DNA of 64,000 bases from Lophium mytilinum (Eukaryota). The position numbers and the translations under genes were made by a program. This document shows positions 14,474-23,170 of this stretch, in pieces. Under the pieces are notes generated by a model that was not told where the DNA came from, did not search any database, and saw nothing but the letters and a program-made list of their open reading frames with translations. Positions within the stretch are counted from its first letter, which is position 1. Each line of letters begins with the position of its first letter. The stretch is taken from positions 1,674,001 through 1,738,000 of the forward strand of contig MU004181.1 in assembly GCA_010093605.1 (NCBI GenBank). Reading direction: 5' to 3'.

Positions 14474-15327
14474 ATTGGCATCGTCTTAGGTGGCCCGGAG
14501 AGCTATCAAACCTGCCAAGACTGGCAGTTTACGAATTTGAATGACCTAGCAGAGGGCCTTGAGCGGTGCTAGACACGTATTCAAAGCCCAGAGTGAGTAT
14601 ATGTCTCACCACGGAGTCGTGGACTACCATTTGGTTCTTGGGTTCCTGGCGGATCATGTTGGGCTGGTTGAGCGTTCGTGCCAGGGATGAACCTGTTTTT
14701 GGTGTATGTATGTACGTTGTGTATGTCTTTATGAAATGGTGGCGCAGGATCAATTTGCTGCACATAGTTGGTATGCATTCAAGCATTGCGATTCTTTTTC
14801 TCGTCTCAGGTACTCGCTCGGCATTAGAGGTTGTTTATGTTGTTTGATGAAACCAACAATATAAAGATAGACCCATTTTAGCCCGTATCTCTACCCAGCT
14901 CTACTTTAGTTCGCGAATCTTAAGTAAAGCGAGCAAACTCATATGAAGGACTTCCAATACTGATCGCTGACTTCAATAGAGGCTATTGATTGACTTAAGT
15001 GTGGCTGCAAGCCTGCACGCATGGTCTATTTCTTCGAGTATCATCATCAGATATTCTGTCCGTGTAACCTTGGTTCGCTTAAAATGAACGTATCTATGTC
15101 TTGGGATCAGACCCGGTGACCTGGCCAAACTGGCGGGTTAGATTGCTTCTCATCTAAAAAAGGTACTAATCGTGCTTTAGGCTCCCTGGTATATTGAACG
15201 GCATCTAGATCCTGGTTCCATACTCATCTTTCCTATTCATCCACCAAGGATTATCCTATTTCCAATGCACTCCCACGTGGAATCCTAGCTTTGTCCAGGG
15301 GCCATGCATCACCTAGGCATATCTATC

Positions 15328-15334
15328 GGCTAAA
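15328..15334 (+). promoter_or_regulatory. Putative XlnR/Xyr1 site GGCTAAA upstream of the xylanase
   Basis: Exact GGCTAAA about 170 bp upstream of xylanase exon 1; a reverse GGCTAA (TTAGCC) lies at 14878-14883. Confidence 0.45.
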
Positions 15335-15788
15335 ACTGAAATAGGAAAACACGACGACCGGGAAGATGAACACTTCTAGCGGCATATGTAACATATATTC
15401 ATCTCCATACCCATTGTCTTACCTTGTGATTCAACTTACACTTCTCCGCGTTGCGCCTTGTCCTTCATTGCTCCCATTCTCTCTTTCAAAGCAGATCTGA
15501 AGTGAAGTCCCTTATTCTCTTTACAGCACTGGCTGCCGTGCACCTAGCTGCTGCAGCTCCTAGTGATATCGGCCGTCGACATGGAGGGTATAATAAAACT
15601 AGGCTAAATGACTTGGCTAAAGAAGCTGGGCTACTATACCTTAGCACTGCCACTGACTATCTAAGTTTAAACAATACCACGTACATGTCGATCGCCACAG
15701 ACTCACATGAGTTCGGACAAGTTACTCCCGCGAACGAGCAAAAGGTGTGTGATGGGGATACTTACGTTGAGTAAGGATAGCGGCCAAA

Positions 15789-15927
15789 CGTAGCATGATC
15801 CCGCAATGATACTGTACCCACGATGGCTAACATGAATGCGAATTCGTGGATGTACTATATATAGAGCCGTCCCCCAACGTCTTCGACTACACAGACGGTG
15901 ATGCGATCATTCGGCTCCGCTACCGCC
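15789..15927 (+). repeat. Left copy (A) of duplicated xylanase intron-end/exon-2 start; degenerate
   Basis: Aligns to 18195-18327; acceptor TAG reads TCG; carries a 5-nt TATAT insertion and a 1-nt insertion. Confidence 0.9.
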
Positions 15928-17302
15928 GGCACACGTTAACTCGATGCTAAAAGTGAATGACTTGTCGTTCTCTGTGGCCTTCAACGCTCATCGACGAGAC
16001 TCGTCCTGGTTGTCAAACAGCCAAGCCAATCGCACGGTGTCTCCGTTCTTCAGATTGGACTGCTGTACGAACGTCGCGGGAATCGTAACGCGCTCGCCTC
16101 CACCAATGCAGATATTGGCGGTATCCCCGTATCTCTAAGTACGGAATTCGCCATGGGTGCTCCCGCTTAGCTTAACTGTCCCGCTCTGCTCACGCCCCGT
16201 ATCGAATGTGAAGTCGTGGAGTGGCCATTTATCATTTAGTTGCGTCCATAACGGGGGGTCTAACTGCGCCACCCACTCAGGGCAGTCGGGGAGGGAGTAT
16301 GTAGATGGTATAAACAGTGAGCGCAACATTATCATCATCATCGTTTCCGCTATCAGTTGTACGATGTCGGATACCCGCTCGCCGTCAAAGACAACTAACT
16401 TAACGAGATATGGAGTAGCGGCGTGCCGTTCCCAGAATATATAGTGTCTGCATCTGCTGGAAGGCTGTTCTCGACAACTCGGATTCAGGTGCTCCTGTGA
16501 TCGCGCCCAGAATCCCTGGCCGGAAGACCTCGAAGATGAATTTCGTCCGGCGGACCCCGTGTAGAGTCCATCTCCTGTTTCTGAACTGAGCGCGTTTGCA
16601 TAAACAACTTGGCGTGGGTCCTTTCGTTCGCCGCCAATGGCCGCAATGTCTTGGATACTGACCGGCCGGCCATGAATTAGAGCCTGGATAATGTTGTTCG
16701 CCCCGTCTGTGATTGACGTTCTGATTGTGCGCAATGTTGCTCTATGGTCCAGATCTAAGTGCAATCTAAGCAGGGCGGCCGGTGGGGGAGAGCAGATTGA
16801 TCTAGAGGTCTTCTGATGTGCAACAGCTTAAGTACCAAGCAAATACTTGGTACAGTGCCGCCGTTGTAGAGTGTGCTGGATACCCTCGCATATCGTGTTG
16901 CACTTCGCGTAGTTTTGTACGCAAGTCAGACTGAGCAACCAAGAGTAGCGATTTGTCCGGTAGCGTTGTCTGAATGGGATTCCGTTCGGTCTTCGCTCGC
17001 TTCGTTTTCAGGGTCTGATGATCGGCCGCTGGACCATCGTTGACACTCTCGACCAATAGTAGAGAGTTGTCTGGCGGCGTCATCTACATGGGATTCCATT
17101 CGGTCTTCGTTCGCTTCGCTGGACCATCGTTGACACGGTCTTCTTCAACGATGGGTCTCTTCTTAATGATGTCGGCCCTTGCGTGGACATCGTCGGCTAG
17201 TAAGATATCCAATATTTCGAGGGATGTGAGATCGTTGTTGCTGAGAAGGTCGGCAACTTCCATCCTATCCACGGTGCCCCATCCGATCCCGGTTGATTCC
17301 AT
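15922..17302 (-). pseudogene. N-terminal part of a GIY-YIG-nuclease-like protein (4 in-frame stops, 1 frameshift)
   Basis: Consecutive minus ORFs 17302-17084, 17083-16802 and 16764-16135 plus continued frame to 15922. Stops are TAG 17086, TAG 16804, TAG 16137 and TGA 15990, with a +1 shift near 16772. Motif VVY-x12-YTGSA...GFWARSQEHL...RHY...IAETMM. Confidence 0.6.
16975..17146. repeat. Internal imperfect tandem repeat (period about 113 bp) in the insert gene
   Basis: ATGGGATTCCRTTCGGTCTTCGYTCGCTTCG at 16975 and 17088 and GCTGGACCATCGTTGACAC twice; peptides VNDGPA..KRTKTEWNPM*MTPPDNSLLL vs VNDGPA..KRAKTERNPIQTTLPDKSLLL. Confidence 0.85.
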
Positions 17303-17612
17303 CTGATAGCTTCTTGATAGGCGAGCTGAAGACGAAAGAGTGTGCGACGAGTGAGGCCGTGATGGTTGGAGTGTTTAAGCTGGACGAAATCATACCAAGT
17401 GGCCAGGTGTAGGAAAGAGGCAATGGGTAGCGCGCATTGCGTGGCAGGAACAGTAGACGCATTCGAATATTTAAAGCAGGAGAGTCTGGACAATCAAGCG
17501 GACTAAACACTATCAAACTGTACATGGGGTATGTCCTGCTGGATATTACCATGCGTAAACATACGTTTAGTAATCCAGGCTTCGTGAAGGTCCTCCTCTT
17601 CACCCAGCGAGT

Positions 17613-18194
17613 TCATTCTGTAAAAGTTGTCTTTAGCTTCTTGATGCCATCCGCGAAATGCCCAGTCTTCGTTGTTTTAGAACGCAGCCATGCGGTGCCT
17701 TTCGCGCCCTCCACTTTAATGCCGAGTGAGTATACATATCCATCAGCAGCGGTCGCGTGAGATGCAAAACGGTAGCCTGGTTCGTCAAGGTGGAAATGTA
17801 TTGTAATCTCACACTCGTCTTTGAAGCCGCATTTGGCCATATCCGCAACCAGGATGGGCAACACGACTAGGCCGAGTATGCTGGTGAGTTCTATTCGACC
17901 TCCATACAAGGGATTAAGCTGGCGCACGAAATGTTTATAAGTAACTACGCGGCAGGGTGGGCTGCTAGATGACTCTGGATATGGAGCCATGAACGAGACC
18001 GGTCTGACAAGGTGCCTCCCGTGACTAGAGATAGTATGATCATCCTCCGGGAAAGAGGGAGGAGGTGGTAGGCCGGAAGACTCGTCGCCAGCATCGTGGA
18101 ATGCCACAGCAACCGCTCGCTTAAGTGGAAGAGGCTTATCTAAATCGACATCATCTCGTCCGACGGTGGCAGAGTGGAATTGGATCCAATGACT
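17613..18194 (-). pseudogene. C-terminal part of the same insert gene (no start codon; may extend to about 17503 via a frameshift)
   Basis: Frame is open right up to the insert boundary (SHWIQFHSATVGRDDVDLDKPLPLKRAVAVAFHD...); contains a second copy of the FAxxATxxD...LGIxV...W module seen at the end of the N-terminal part. Confidence 0.6.
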
Positions 18195-18327
18195 CGTAGC
18201 ATGATCCCGCAGTGATACTGTACTTACGTTGGCTAAAATAACTGCAAATTAGTGGATGTACATCGAACCCTCTCCTAATGTCTTCAACTACACCAACGGC
18301 GATGCGATAATCCGGCCAGCAATAGCC
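18195..18327 (+). repeat. Right copy (B) of duplicated xylanase intron-end/exon-2 start; intact
   Basis: Retains a branch-like GCTAA and the TAG acceptor (18250-18252), and continues into the full exon 2. Confidence 0.9.
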
Positions 18328-20208
18328 CATCACCAGATCCGACGCTGTCATAACTTCGTATGGCACTCCCAGCTCCCAGAGTGGGTGACAGGCACGAGCC
18401 ACACCCGCTCCGCCTTGCTCTCTATCATGGAGAACCACATCGCCCACGTAATGAGCCACTATTCCAAACAATGTTACGCCTGGGATGTGGTCAACGAAGC
18501 TTTTAACGAGGACGGAACGCTCCGAAGCGCCGTCTGGCTCGACACCATCGGACCTGAGTACCTCGAGCTCGCCTTCAAGTTCGCCGCCAAGTACAATGAC
18601 GGCAAGGCGAAGCTCTACTACAACAACTACAATATCGAGACCGGGAATAACAAGTCACTCGCCGTAGCCGCCATGGTCAAAGACTTCCAAAGCAAGGGAA
18701 TCCAGATCGACGGCGTGTGCCTACAGTCGCACTTCACTGCCGGCAGCTCGCCCTCCTATGAGCAGCAGATGGAGAACATGGCGCAATTCGTAGCTTTAGG
18801 CGTGGAAACAGCTATCACAGAGCTCAACGTGCGGATTGAGCTGCCAACGTCGAAGGACAAGGAGGTGCAGCAGGCAACTAACTACGCGAACGCGGTGAAG
18901 GCGTGTAAAGATGCGGATGGATGTATTGGTGTGACGGTGTGGGATTTCTATGATCCGTATAGCTGGTGAGTAATTGTCCACGGGTGTTCATTGGTGGAAG
19001 TGATATGCGGCTAACCACGTGCCGAACAGGGTGCCGGCGGTCTTTGAGGGGCAGGGCGACGCCACGCTGTGGTGGGGAAACTTTACAAAGAAGGAGGCGT
19101 ATTATGCGGTTGCGGATGTGCTGAGAGAATAGAAGAGACCGAGTCGCGATTGGAGATGAGATGAAGATTACTCACTGAAGTCTTGGGGTGTGTATCACGT
19201 GATGTGTGTTTATATATTCAATGACCGACTTCATACCTTTGTAATTCTACTAATGAATACGCTTCACGCCCTACACGTACAGCGGCTAGCTAACGAGAAC
19301 TGTCATACGGACATGGCCTTCCGTGCAAGCCACAGTTGCTCAACTAATGCGTGGGTAGAGGATTCCGTGAATCCCACCGGCGTCGGCATCCCCAAGTAGC
19401 ATGGGACAAAGTCTATTTTGAGCGGGGAAAGATGCCCTTGTCGACGAAGGGAAGTGCCGAGGGATTTCTCATCCGCAGGAGGGTGTGGAGAAGTGATGTG
19501 CAAGCTCAAGGATAGCCAGTGAAGATCGGCAGGGCATCGTAATTTGGCCTCCCGACCTGGCTGTCAGGCTGGCAACAGCAGACTCTCGTGAGAGTACGAC
19601 ACCAGCGTGCTACCAACCCCGCTTCTCGTCCCGTCTGACATGCATTTTTCGTGAAGTGAGAGAGCGCCACGAACTGCTTTGAGGGGAAGCCGAGCCGCTA
19701 ATGCACTGCGCTGGGAGGCTGCGGGAGCGGCGTTCCTGGGGAAGCTTGGCCCGGATCACTCTTTGCAAATGCACGAGGTTGGGATCTGGCATGATGATGA
19801 CCGGCACGCAGGGAGAGGGATAGCCAGCTGACCTGCCCAACGCGCCCAAGTTCTTTGCTGAAGCCGGCGCGCACAGCATCGTGCAGCTCTTGGCACGCCG
19901 CGACCGCGATCGAGGGCGGCCCGGCGACTTGCACACGCGGTGGAAGCGGTGGAAACGATGGGCAACGCTGGAAACATTGCCGTTCTCGGCTGGCGGCGGG
20001 CCTGCGCATCGTGGTCTGTGGCGTCCGGGGTGCTTGCAGCTCGGTCGTGAGAGCGTCATGGCTTCCACCTTGCGCCGAGTATTAAATCACCAGCGCCCCT
20101 TACATCGCCCTCCGCTCCCCTCCACCACGCTGAGCATTCGTTCAATTCCTCGCCGTCGTTTCCACCTGCCTGCCTCTGCTGCTGGAACCCATTCTTACGC
20201 CACTCAAC

Positions 20209-23170
20209 ATGAAGTGGCTATCGGCTGCAATCTGCTTGCAGCTGCAGCTGGCCCATGCGTTGGCTGGAGCACCACCCGTAAGTCGTCTCGGGAATCCGTA
20301 AACAACTCCCAACACTGCACCTTAGCATCAGTATTCCCTATACCGCATGCATGAAGTCACAGACAGGTCTCCTAGGCTTCGTCGTGGGCTTGTTCCCTTT
20401 TCTCGACGTAAACATTGCGCCTGTTTCTTTTGTTGTTTTGCGCTAACTCGTGTAAACAGTACTCCAATGTCGCGCGACAATCACCCAACAACTCCACCCC
20501 ACCGCCCGATTCTAATCAGGCATTCTCTCCGCCGAAATATCCATCGCCATGGATGGACGGCTCGGGCGGTTGGGAGGCGGCTTACGCAAAGGCCCAGGCA
20601 TTTGTCAAGCAATTGACTCTGCTTGAGAAGGTCAATCTCACCACCGGAGTTGGGTAAGTTAATAGCACCGAACTTGGATGACGACATTCTGACAGTAAAC
20701 AGCTGGGAAGGAGAAGCCTGTGTTGGCAACGTCGGCGCTATTCCACGCCTCGGTTTCCCGGCCCTCTGCATGCAGGATTCTCCATTGGGAGTCCGGTTCG
20801 CTGATTTCGTCTCTGCATTCCCCGCTGGTGGCACTGTGGCTGCATCATGGGATCGCGGTGTCTGGTATGAGCGCGGTTACCAGATGGGCATGGAGGTAAC
20901 ATTTGGACTCCTACTCAAGTAAATTCGAGACTAACTGATATCTAGCACCGCGGCAAAGGAGTCGACGTCCAGCTAGGCCCAGTCGTAGGACCCCTAGGCC
21001 GCAGCCCCGAGGGCGGACGCAATTGGGAGGGCTTCAGTCCCGACCCTGTCTTATCTGGCATTGCCGTTGCCGAGACCGTCCGCGGTATTCAAGATGCGGG
21101 CGTCATTGCTTGCACCAAGCACTACATCCTGAACGAGCAAGAGCATTTCCGTCAACCCGCCACTGTGAATGGGACTTTCTTGGAAGCTATCAGCTCGAAT
21201 GTTGACGACAAGACACTCCATGAACTCTATCTGTGGCCATTTGCCGACGCGGTACGAGCTGGAACGGGCAGCATCATGTGCTCCTACAATCAAGTCAACA
21301 ACAGCTATGCTTGCCAAAACAGCTACCTCATGAACTACATCCTCAAGGGCGAGCTCGGTTTCCAGGGTTTCGTCATGAGCGATTGGTCTGCTCAACATGC
21401 CGGTGTCAGCAGTGCTCTTGCGGGGCTTGACATGACGATGCCAGGAGACACTGCGTTCGACACCGGCCTGTCGTTCTGGGTAAGCCTACATTCTTCTACA
21501 AGCTTGCTATTCTTGAATCTAACTTGGATTAGGGTACGAACTTGACTATCTCCGTCCTCAATGGCACCGTTCCGGAATGGAGACTCGATGACATGGCAAC
21601 TCGAATCATGGCTGCTTACTACTTAGTCGGCCGCGACACAGCATCAGTTCCCGTCAATTTCAACTCCTGGTCCCTCGACACCTTTGGCTATGAACATGCT
21701 TATGCCCTGTCATCATATGGCTTGATTAATCAGCACATCGATGTTCGAGCCGAGCATGCATTGGCCATTCGGTCTGCAGCTGCCCGTTCTACTGTTCTCC
21801 TGAAGAACACTGCGGGAACTCTGCCACTAAAAGGAACCGAAAAATTCACTGCGGTCTTTGGTGAAGATGCCGCTGACAACGCCTATGGACCAAATGGCTG
21901 CCCGGATCACGGTTGCGACAATGGCACCCTCGCTCAAGGTTGGGGTTCTGGGACGGCTAGCTTCCCCTACCTCGTCTCTCCTCTCACAGCAATCCAAAAC
22001 GAACTCCTGCAAAATGGCAAGGTTGTGCAGAGTGTGACGGATAACTGGGCCTACACTCAAGTTCAAACGCTTGCCAGACAAGCAAGCGTTTCCATCGTGT
22101 TTGTCAATGCCGACAGTGGTGAGCAGTACATCGTCGTCGACGGTAACGAGGGTGATCGCAACAACCTCACGCTATGGAAAGATGGTGACACATTGATCAA
22201 GAATGTCACGGCTAATTGCAACAATACGATTGTTGTTATTCACTCGGTGGGACCAGTTCTGGTAGATGCCTGGTATGACAATCCGAATGTCACTGCCATT
22301 CTCTGGGCAGGTTTGCCCGGAGAGCAATCTGGAAACTCCATCGTCGATGTTTTGTACGGCCGTGTCAACCCTGGAGGCAAACTGCCATTCACTATGGGTG
22401 CGACTCGGAAAGACTTCGGAACAGATCTGATATACACGCCGAATAATGGAGACAACGCGCCGCAGGACAACTTCGTGGAGGGTGTATTCATCGATTATCG
22501 TCATTTCGACAAGTATAACATCGCTCCAATCTATGAGTTCGGATATGGACTTAGCTACACTACCTTCAAATACTCGAGTATTAGCGTTTCGAAGGTTTAT
22601 AGCGGGCCTTACACTCCTAACGAAGGCACGACTGCGGCCGCTCCAACGCTCGGAAACTTTAGCACCGATCCTGCAGACTACCAATCCCCATCAAACTGGA
22701 CATTCGTACCTGCCTACTTATATCCTTGGCTCAATTCGACAGATCTCGAGAAGGCGTCTCAAGAGCCTGATTATGGTCAAGACGGGTGGATTCCTGACGG
22801 TGCATTGGATGGCTCGCCCCAGCCTCGCATCGCGGCTGGCGGAGGACCGGGTGGCAATCCTCAGCTTTGGGACACTCTCTTTACCGTCACTGCGACGATT
22901 ACGAACAACGGCACTATTGCGGGAGAGGAAGTAGTGCAGCTGTACGTCTCTTTGGGCGCGCCCGATGACCCGAAGGTCGTTCTCCGCAACTTCGAGCGTC
23001 TGAGCATTCAGCCCGGACAATCAGCGACGTTTACGGCGGACATCACGCGGAGAGACGTAAGCAATTGGGATACGGATAGCCAGAATTGGGTCATCTCGAA
23101 GTATCCGAAGAAGGTGTATGTGGGAAGCTCGTCGCGGAAGCTTCTGCTGAGCAGCGACCTCTCTTTCTAA
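20209..23170 (+). CDS. bglA: Secreted beta-glucosidase, GH3 (BglA/Cel3A-like; multi-exon)
   Basis: Signal peptide [76 protein letters not shown] (nucleophile), [10 protein letters not shown], FnIII-like tail. Confidence 0.95.

Follow-up and report, generated by a model that had tools for sequence, protein, structure and literature searches.

A synonymously diverged duplicate of a xylanase gene segment encloses a broken GIY-YIG-like gene in Lophium mytilinum and may be the remnant of a homing-type cassette

A 64,000-nt stretch of nuclear DNA from the Dothideomycete Lophium mytilinum, referred to here as the window, contains a glycoside hydrolase family 10 (GH10) xylanase gene with an unusual structure. 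A 139-nt piece of this gene, comprising 58 nt of the 3′ end of intron 1 and the first 25 codons of exon 2, is present twice around a 2,267-nt insert (15928-18194). The upstream piece is called copy A and the downstream piece copy B. The insert carries a nuclease-like gene, which adjoins this divergent duplicate of the neighbouring host-gene part. The analysis concerns this one locus in one strain, and the locus is built from the following features.

15502-15746, plus strand: exon 1 of the GH10 xylanase gene (tblastn of the proteins P0001 and P0002, and reading of the sequence).
15747-15788, plus strand: 5′ part of intron 1 with the donor GTGTGT, present in a single copy (sequence, and the P0001 junction ...ANEQK/WMYIEP...).
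15789-15927, plus strand: copy A, consisting of the 3′ part of intron 1 (15789-15846, with a branch-site-like CTAAC) and exon-2 codons 1-25 (local alignment, repeat search).
15988-17083, minus strand: broken gene belonging to a small Dothideomycete family; its GIY-YIG-like core lies at about 16234-16611 (phmmer, tblastn, reading frames, conserved residues, atlas).
17084-18194, minus strand: rest of the insert, with minus-strand open frames (listing of open reading frames).
18195-18327, plus strand: copy B, consisting of the 3′ part of the intron with the intact acceptor TAG/TGG and exon-2 codons 1-25, running on into the remaining gene (local alignment, repeat search).
18253-18966, plus strand: GH10 exon 2, 238 codons (Pfam Glyco_hydro_10).
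18967-19030, plus strand: second intron, ordinary, 64 nt (sequence).
19031-19132, plus strand: GH10 exon 3 with the stop codon (tblastn).

The identity of the host gene is clear from its second exon. Translated exon 2 (stretch 18253-18969) matches Pfam Glyco_hydro_10 at 3.6e-75 and is 100% identical to P0001, a protein of 319 aa named 'glycoside hydrolase, partial [Lophium mytilinum]'. This partial protein begins with RLNDLAKE, and within it ...ANEQK, the end of exon 1 at 15746, is fused directly to WMYIEP... at 18253. Since P0001 joins exon 1 to copy B, the public gene model takes 15747-18252 (2,506 nt) as one intron. There are zero stop codons within the 319 codons of the xylanase.

The duplication was found by two procedures. 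The repeat search pairs 15789-15855 with 18195-18261 at 87% identity and a spacing of 2406, and the local alignment extends the pair to 15927 and 18327; both agree with the two xylanase copies reported by the first-pass annotation of this DNA. Relative to copy B, copy A contains the insertions TATAT at 15856-15860 (+5 nt) and T at 15916 (+1 nt), which put it out of frame. Its splice acceptor AG is changed to CG (TCG for TAG), while copy B retains TAG/TGG and an intact reading frame. With two frameshifting insertions and a destroyed 3′ splice site, copy A is a dead fragment. The 25 aligned codons described in the first-pass annotation are recovered once TATAT and T are removed from A; the annotation had overlooked these insertions, and A as it stands is out of frame. 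With the two insertions taken out, the exon part of A reads WMYIEPSPNVFDYTDGDAIIRPATA and that of B reads WMYIEPSPNVFNYTNGDAIIRPAIA.

These exon parts differ by 16 substitutions, distributed as 2, 1 and 13 over codon positions 1, 2 and 3. The Nei-Gojobori method counts 16.8 synonymous sites, with 13 changes, and 58.2 non-synonymous sites, with 3; the three amino-acid changes had been counted before, and the earlier figure of 12 synonymous changes has to be raised by one. All six codons 4-9 (IEPSPN) are changed at the third position, as had been noticed. The proportion of synonymous sites that differ (pS) is 0.77 over the 25 codons, near saturation. The binomial probability of at least 13 synonymous changes among 16 is p = 1.0e-6, and the comparison of codon positions 1 and 2 (3/50) with position 3 (13/25) gives p = 1.3e-5. 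Because changes at the first two positions are far rarer than third-position changes, neutral decay of a fresh duplication is ruled out, as the first-pass annotation had argued. Judged by this codon pattern, A and B must both have been under coding constraint while they diverged. In EPSPNVF, A and B have the residues SP in common, while four other species have EPER, EPQR, EPSR and EPER at this place. This shared SP makes A and B mutually closest at the protein level, though their silent sites are saturated.

The intron part of the repeat behaves differently from the exon part. Nine of its 58 sites differ (0.155), in line with the earlier count of about nine, and they are unevenly spread: the exon-distal 29 nt hold 1 and the exon-proximal 29 nt hold 8. 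In a comparison that consists of a single pair of sequences, third positions (13/25) exceed the whole intron part (9/58) with p = 0.001; counted per synonymous site instead (13/17), the excess has p = 5e-6 over the whole intron part and p = 0.002 over its exon-proximal half.

The step from 1 difference to 8 between the two intron halves is what a short conversion tract would leave, and it brings in an explanation by ordinary paralogues. An old tandem pair of GH10 genes with another gene between them would have been trimmed by deletions, and later gene conversion would have homogenised the left end of the repeat. Divergence under constraint also suits paralogues. We consider this history quite unlikely: it needs two independent deletions that left exactly complementary pieces with a 139-nt overlap, and tblastn shows no GH10-like DNA beyond the known parts, neither in the insert nor in the rest of the 64 kb window. 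DNA homology past the two repeat ends was not found either: the scores are 7 and 8, and shuffles average 8.1 and 8.0.

Two side observations concern the borders of the repeat. tblastn weakly prolongs copy A over 15928-15995, where RRHTLTRC...LWPSTLID is aligned with ...RRCHNLLWHSQLPD of the orthologues and contains two stops. An extension of copy A to about 15995 was rejected at the DNA level, where it scores 7 while shuffles average 8.1, 479 of the 500 scoring as high. Copy A may or may not reach past 15927. Within intron 1 there is also a 16-nt internal repeat: 15759-15774 (TACTTACGTTGAGTAA, in the single-copy 5′ part) is 88% like a stretch within copy B, the corresponding sites being 15815-15830 and 18221-18236.

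The GC content at third codon positions (GC3) is 0.76 in copy A, 0.64 in copy B and 0.74 in the remaining exon 2, and the window of B ranks 65 of 214. Both copies lie near the remaining exon 2, so codon usage marks neither of them as foreign. Exon 1 has a GC3 of 0.42 (33/79) against 0.70 in exon 3, and only 1% of 79-codon windows, taken over the GC3-rich frames in the window, are that low. Exon 1 together with the intron start has a composite index of +0.49, resembling that left by repeat-induced point mutation (RIP); the window mean is -0.54 with a standard deviation of 0.47. Judging by composition, this may be a mosaic locus, with the break falling within intron 1.

This index is the one point in favour of RIP, which we weighed together with a transposon target-site duplication, a mitochondrial insertion and an assembly artefact; as a group we consider these explanations very improbable. 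For RIP, the 25 differences between A and B consist of 14 transitions and as many as 11 transversions, and the TA/AT ratio is not high: 0.73 for A, and 0.69-0.74 for the insert, whose composition bears no mark of RIP. For a DNA transposon, no terminal inverted repeats were found at the insert ends, and a duplication of 139 nt at 84% identity is no target-site duplication. A mitochondrial origin does not fit the insert GC of 0.50-0.53 and the 390-590 kb contigs on which relatives of the insert gene lie. An artefact of assembly is contradicted by a second assembly with identical structure: the assembly of run X1 holds the entire structure in one contig with zero differences, X1 being possibly the same data as the window. 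Runs X1 and X2 are both identical to the window and may be its source. The low-depth run X3 gave four short identical contigs, at 15181-15344, 16929-17080, 17991-18207 and 18615-18956; the joint of exon 1 to copy B is not among the contigs of this run, which is uninformative on expression. A catalytic intron was also considered and rejected, as no Rfam family was found in 14500-19500 apart from a chance-level riboswitch match at E 0.33.

Long open frames in the insert are all found on the minus strand. The broken gene has its ATG at 17081-17083, a frame change near 16802-16827, an in-frame TAG at 16135-16137 and the end of its frame at 15988-15990. A phmmer search with the 230-aa frame 16135-16827 found 5 proteins at E ≤0.001 among 1.84 billion representatives. 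Three of them are usable relatives, namely P0121 (8.9e-24, 37% identity), P0122 (9.4e-10) and P0124 (6.3e-5). P0123 and P0125 match via many stretches of about 20-25 residues (5 and 8, respectively) and were left out of the family alignment, and P0126 was added to the family by a profile search. P0121 is an uncharacterised protein of Mytilinidion resinicola (XP_033570191.1) and P0122 an uncharacterised protein of Neofusicoccum ribis (KAL1635372.1), each a cluster of one. tblastn places relatives at 16740-16216 and 16725-15958, passing through the TAG at 16135-16137. The N-terminal part of about 85 codons, starting from the ATG, lies in a different frame and is weakly collinear with P0121; its alignment score of 48 equals the best of 300 shuffles, whose mean is 26.

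The GIY-YIG motif runs in the order GIY, about 10 residues, YxG, and then R, H, E and N. All five family sequences (5/5) contain an invariant Y, then G-L-[YH]-x-G, then G-x3-R-x3(4)-H, followed by RE, Y, E and N. In the numbering of P0121 the invariant residues are Y160, G171, G175, G192, R196, H200, R206, E207, Y217, E248 and N284; in the window copy the motif residues are Y at 16600-16602, R at 16501-16503, H at 16489-16491, E at 16345-16347 and N at 16234-16236. The sequence of I-TevI shows the same residue order, the spacer from YxG to R being 10-13 residues longer in the family. Residues 95-275 of P0122 were compared with an atlas of protein clusters. By features, the best named clusters listed are all GIY-YIG or T5orf172 (0.85-0.87). 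By structure, two unnamed Ascomycota clusters (82 and 50 members) stand at the top of the list with a template modelling (TM) score of 0.80, and after them come GIY-YIG-named clusters, which make up 8 of the 10 entries (TM 0.47-0.52). On the strength of these residues and matches, the insert-gene family probably belongs to the GIY-YIG superfamily.

Further copies of the insert gene were looked for in other data. A 184-nt contig from run X3 matches the nuclease-like core in two blocks, 16377-16420 with 8 deviating letters and 16537-16564 with 2; between these blocks it has 79 letters against 116 in the window, a length difference of 37 nt, and it shows about 15% differences. This suggests, from its sequence, a second, diverged and also frame-shifted copy of the insert gene in the genome behind that run. 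Two pattern scans of metagenome contigs, with 174 and 115 matched stretches, gave no relative.

Other features of the insert may be mentioned here. The N-terminal region of the nuclease-like gene contains a tandem duplication of 114-nt period at 16938-17136 (67 nt at 82% identity), together with an exact 20-nt repeat, 17027-17046 and 17117-17136. In the remaining stretch 17084-18194, the largest open frame is 17613-18248 on the minus strand (211 aa), which reaches 54 nt into the intron part of copy B and has its first Met at about 17990. For this frame no relatives were found among longer proteins, nor any Pfam family, PDB relative or usable atlas match. The stretch may be the promoter or leader of the nuclease-like gene, or a second dead gene.

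The genes around the locus are ordinary and encode a DUF3074 protein, a GH3 glycosidase, a forkhead/FHA protein, MFS transporters and an adaptin. The GH3 glycosidase gene (20400-23170, with Glyco_hydro_3 N- and C-terminal domains and an Fn3-like domain) follows the xylanase gene downstream at a distance of 1.3 kb, and the two may form a small xylan-utilisation pair.

Our favoured reading, held tentatively and falling a little short of probable, is that a nuclear protein-coding gene here holds the decayed remains of a selfish cassette of the homing type, comparable to the WHO elements of yeasts or to the mobile open reading frames (mORFs) of mitochondria. For this cassette we infer that its gene encoded an active nuclease, where this nuclease cut, that B was the incoming and A the resident copy, and that splicing runs over the insert. 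It would have consisted of three parts: a free-standing minus-strand nuclease gene of the GIY-YIG-like family, a leader of about 1.1 kb, and a private host segment, copy B, in which the 3′ end of intron 1, acceptor included, is followed by the beginning of exon 2 recoded at synonymous positions. The nuclease would cut cassette-free alleles near exon-2 codons 1-26, and repair off the cassette-bearing chromosome would copy the cassette in, displacing the resident copy A upstream. Because the segment of the cassette includes the 3′ end of the intron, the nuclease gene and copy A would come to lie within the enlarged intron 15747-18252, and exon 1 could still be spliced to the exon 2 that begins in B. 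Recoding of the silent sites would shield B from the nuclease. Silent changes packed into 25 codons, against a far less diverged intron, would be expected if nuclease and target had been engaged in an arms race. Once fixation had occurred or targets had been lost, the nuclease gene would decay, and the xylanase would also decay, perhaps for unrelated reasons.

Several observations weigh against this reading, and the first group comes from the host gene. A GTG stands at 15502-15504 in place of the start Met of the orthologues, and no in-frame ATG was found upstream of 15502. In a conservation alignment of 110 of the 120 listed GH10 homologues (lengths 300-420 aa), the window xylanase has five private changes at columns conserved to at least 95%, namely F14L, G15S, D173N, G204C and D240N. 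The sites of D173N, G204C and D240N are invariant in 109 of the 109 other homologues, and D240 directly follows TEL of what we take to be the GH10 nucleophile motif. A count of five private changes is the second highest of the 110 sequences (top 9, median 1). With no ATG and these five changes, host function was either not preserved or was lost later, and the xylanase gene seems, by its sequence, to be dying. An intron of 2.5 kb would be very long for this gene, whose other intron has 64 nt. As a side observation, three of the five private changes are G>A on the coding strand, as are both B-specific Asp>Asn changes (codons 12 and 15).

The second group concerns the insert gene and the repeat. 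Owing to the in-frame TAG and a frame change near 16802-16827 for which no canonical healing intron was found, the insert gene is broken at least twice. Pfam GIY-YIG (HMMER) gave no match for the open reading frame of the window at E ≤0.1, nor for the five family members at E ≤10, and PHROGs gave no GIY-YIG match. A comparison of the family profile with PDB sequences found no nuclease, a weak negative given the shallow alignment. With hhalign, the five-sequence core compared with seven T4 proteins (SegA, SegD, SegE, SegF, SegG, I-TevI and I-TevII) reached a probability of 0.2% and an E of 0.36, against 0.1% for an HNH control; these alignments are shallow as well and the negative is again weak. 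AlphaFold models of P0121 and P0124, built from five-sequence alignments, have predicted local distance difference test (pLDDT) values of 38 and 34, too low for a fold search. The atlas scores lie under the naming bar of the tool and count as leads, and the atlas model of P0122 has a pLDDT of 0.64. The first-pass annotation had proposed that a nuclear homing or gene-drive-like system may have hit this xylanase; the residues and the atlas place the insert gene in a GIY-YIG-like family, but curated models, profile comparisons and fold predictions gave no confirmation of a nuclease. Its further claim that silent divergence exceeds that of the intron stands for the whole intron part, but third positions (13/25) compared with the exon-proximal half (8/29) give p = 0.095.

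A rearrangement without any selfish element is a serious rival, which we nevertheless regard as rather unlikely. A double-strand break in exon 2 would have been repaired by capturing foreign DNA, which held a gene of the nuclease family, and with it a short patch of a functional GH10 copy that has since been lost or is unannotated (a paralogue, an old allele or an introgressed orthologue). The synonymous pattern would then be the ordinary divergence of two functional genes, as divergence at silent sites alone requires merely two functional lineages. Both genes are dead and leave no function to preserve, the nuclease assignment is unconfirmed, and the GC3 of exon 1, 0.42 against 0.74, hints at a mosaic locus. 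Against this rival, among the 120 best GH10 matches only one protein belongs to this species, P0001 itself, and the next-best match is 74% identical and comes from another genus (Glonium stellatum). Lineages with saturated silent sites should also not retain a gap-free intron alignment at 84%. The position of a nuclease-like gene exactly between the duplicates would be a coincidence, and the overlap of A and B just suffices for one complete gene.

The reading as a homing-type cassette can be compared with three known systems. A 2020 study in eLife reportedly described WHO elements at FBA1 in Torulaspora and Lachancea yeasts. In the available part of a recent account (bioRxiv 10.64898/2026.08.13.744650), the nuclease gene of a WHO element lies next to a duplicated and diverged piece of its host gene, and the target is strongly diversified. 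The present locus shares with them a nuclear protein-coding host, an adjacent free-standing endonuclease gene, a host-gene part that the element carries in its own version, and a fragment that remains of the older copy of that part. It differs in its nuclease, which is GIY-YIG-like at best, whereas the WHO nucleases are of the LAGLIDADG type with a zinc finger. WHO elements replace the 3′ half of an intron-less essential gene, whereas here an internal part is duplicated and function would need splicing across the cassette. In addition, the host here is a dispensable secreted enzyme whose gene looks dead, and the cassette is single, with no cluster, and known from sequence alone.

The mitochondrial mORFs form hybrid genes, for example at atp6 of Allomyces macrogynus and at atp6, atp9, cox2 and nad3 of Glomus, and the gene ends they duplicate show low nucleotide but high protein identity, according to the accessible text of PMC3630166. 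As described there, a GIY-YIG or LAGLIDADG open reading frame comes with an inserted divergent copy of the adjoining gene end and the native copy is displaced, as at our locus. Unlike the cassette proposed here, which is nuclear, antisense to its host and set in a spliceosomal intron, the mORFs of that text are mitochondrial, swap the C-terminal end in frame and are co-transcribed. The third case is a mitochondrial GIY-YIG gene that was accidentally inserted into the nuclear DNA of Ustilago maydis (PMC7593156, available text), which resembles our locus in being a dead GIY-YIG gene within a nuclear gene with its start codon lost. It has mitochondrial codon usage and origin and, in that text, comes without a duplicated recoded host fragment, whereas the insert here has a nuclear-like GC and its relatives are nuclear genes of other Dothideomycetes. 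The likeness of the layout to WHO elements and to mitochondrial endonuclease open reading frames, pointed out by the first-pass annotation, matches the published descriptions to the extent of the portions available.

Homing elements in eukaryotic nuclear protein-coding genes are represented by inteins and, since 2020, by the yeast WHO elements. Eukaryotic homing endonucleases are mostly found in organelles and in nuclear ribosomal DNA, according to sources that include the available part of bioRxiv 10.64898/2026.08.13.744650. Our literature search for a nuclear GIY-YIG homing gene in a filamentous ascomycete found none; the GIY-YIG reports it returned are mitochondrial, save for the accidental nuclear insertion of a mitochondrial gene. 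A wider proposal, which we put forward as doubtful, is that an unnamed Dothideomycete nuclear family of free-standing GIY-YIG homing genes invades exons beside spliceosomal introns. Its members would bring along a branch site, a 3′ splice site and a synonymously recoded exon start, and the enlarged intron would take up the nuclease gene and the former exon start, so that the host stays expressible. Such elements would be a spliceosomal counterpart of intron- and intein-borne homing genes, and a GIY-YIG counterpart of the yeast WHO elements.

If the reading as a cassette is not true, the locus is merely a dead xylanase gene with an unusual scar. If it is true, the strategy of bringing one's own copy of the target would have arisen independently with another nuclease fold, and such a cassette could be hidden by a spliceosomal intron. 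An unannotated Ascomycota family would then be nucleases and a possible natural source of long-site nucleases.

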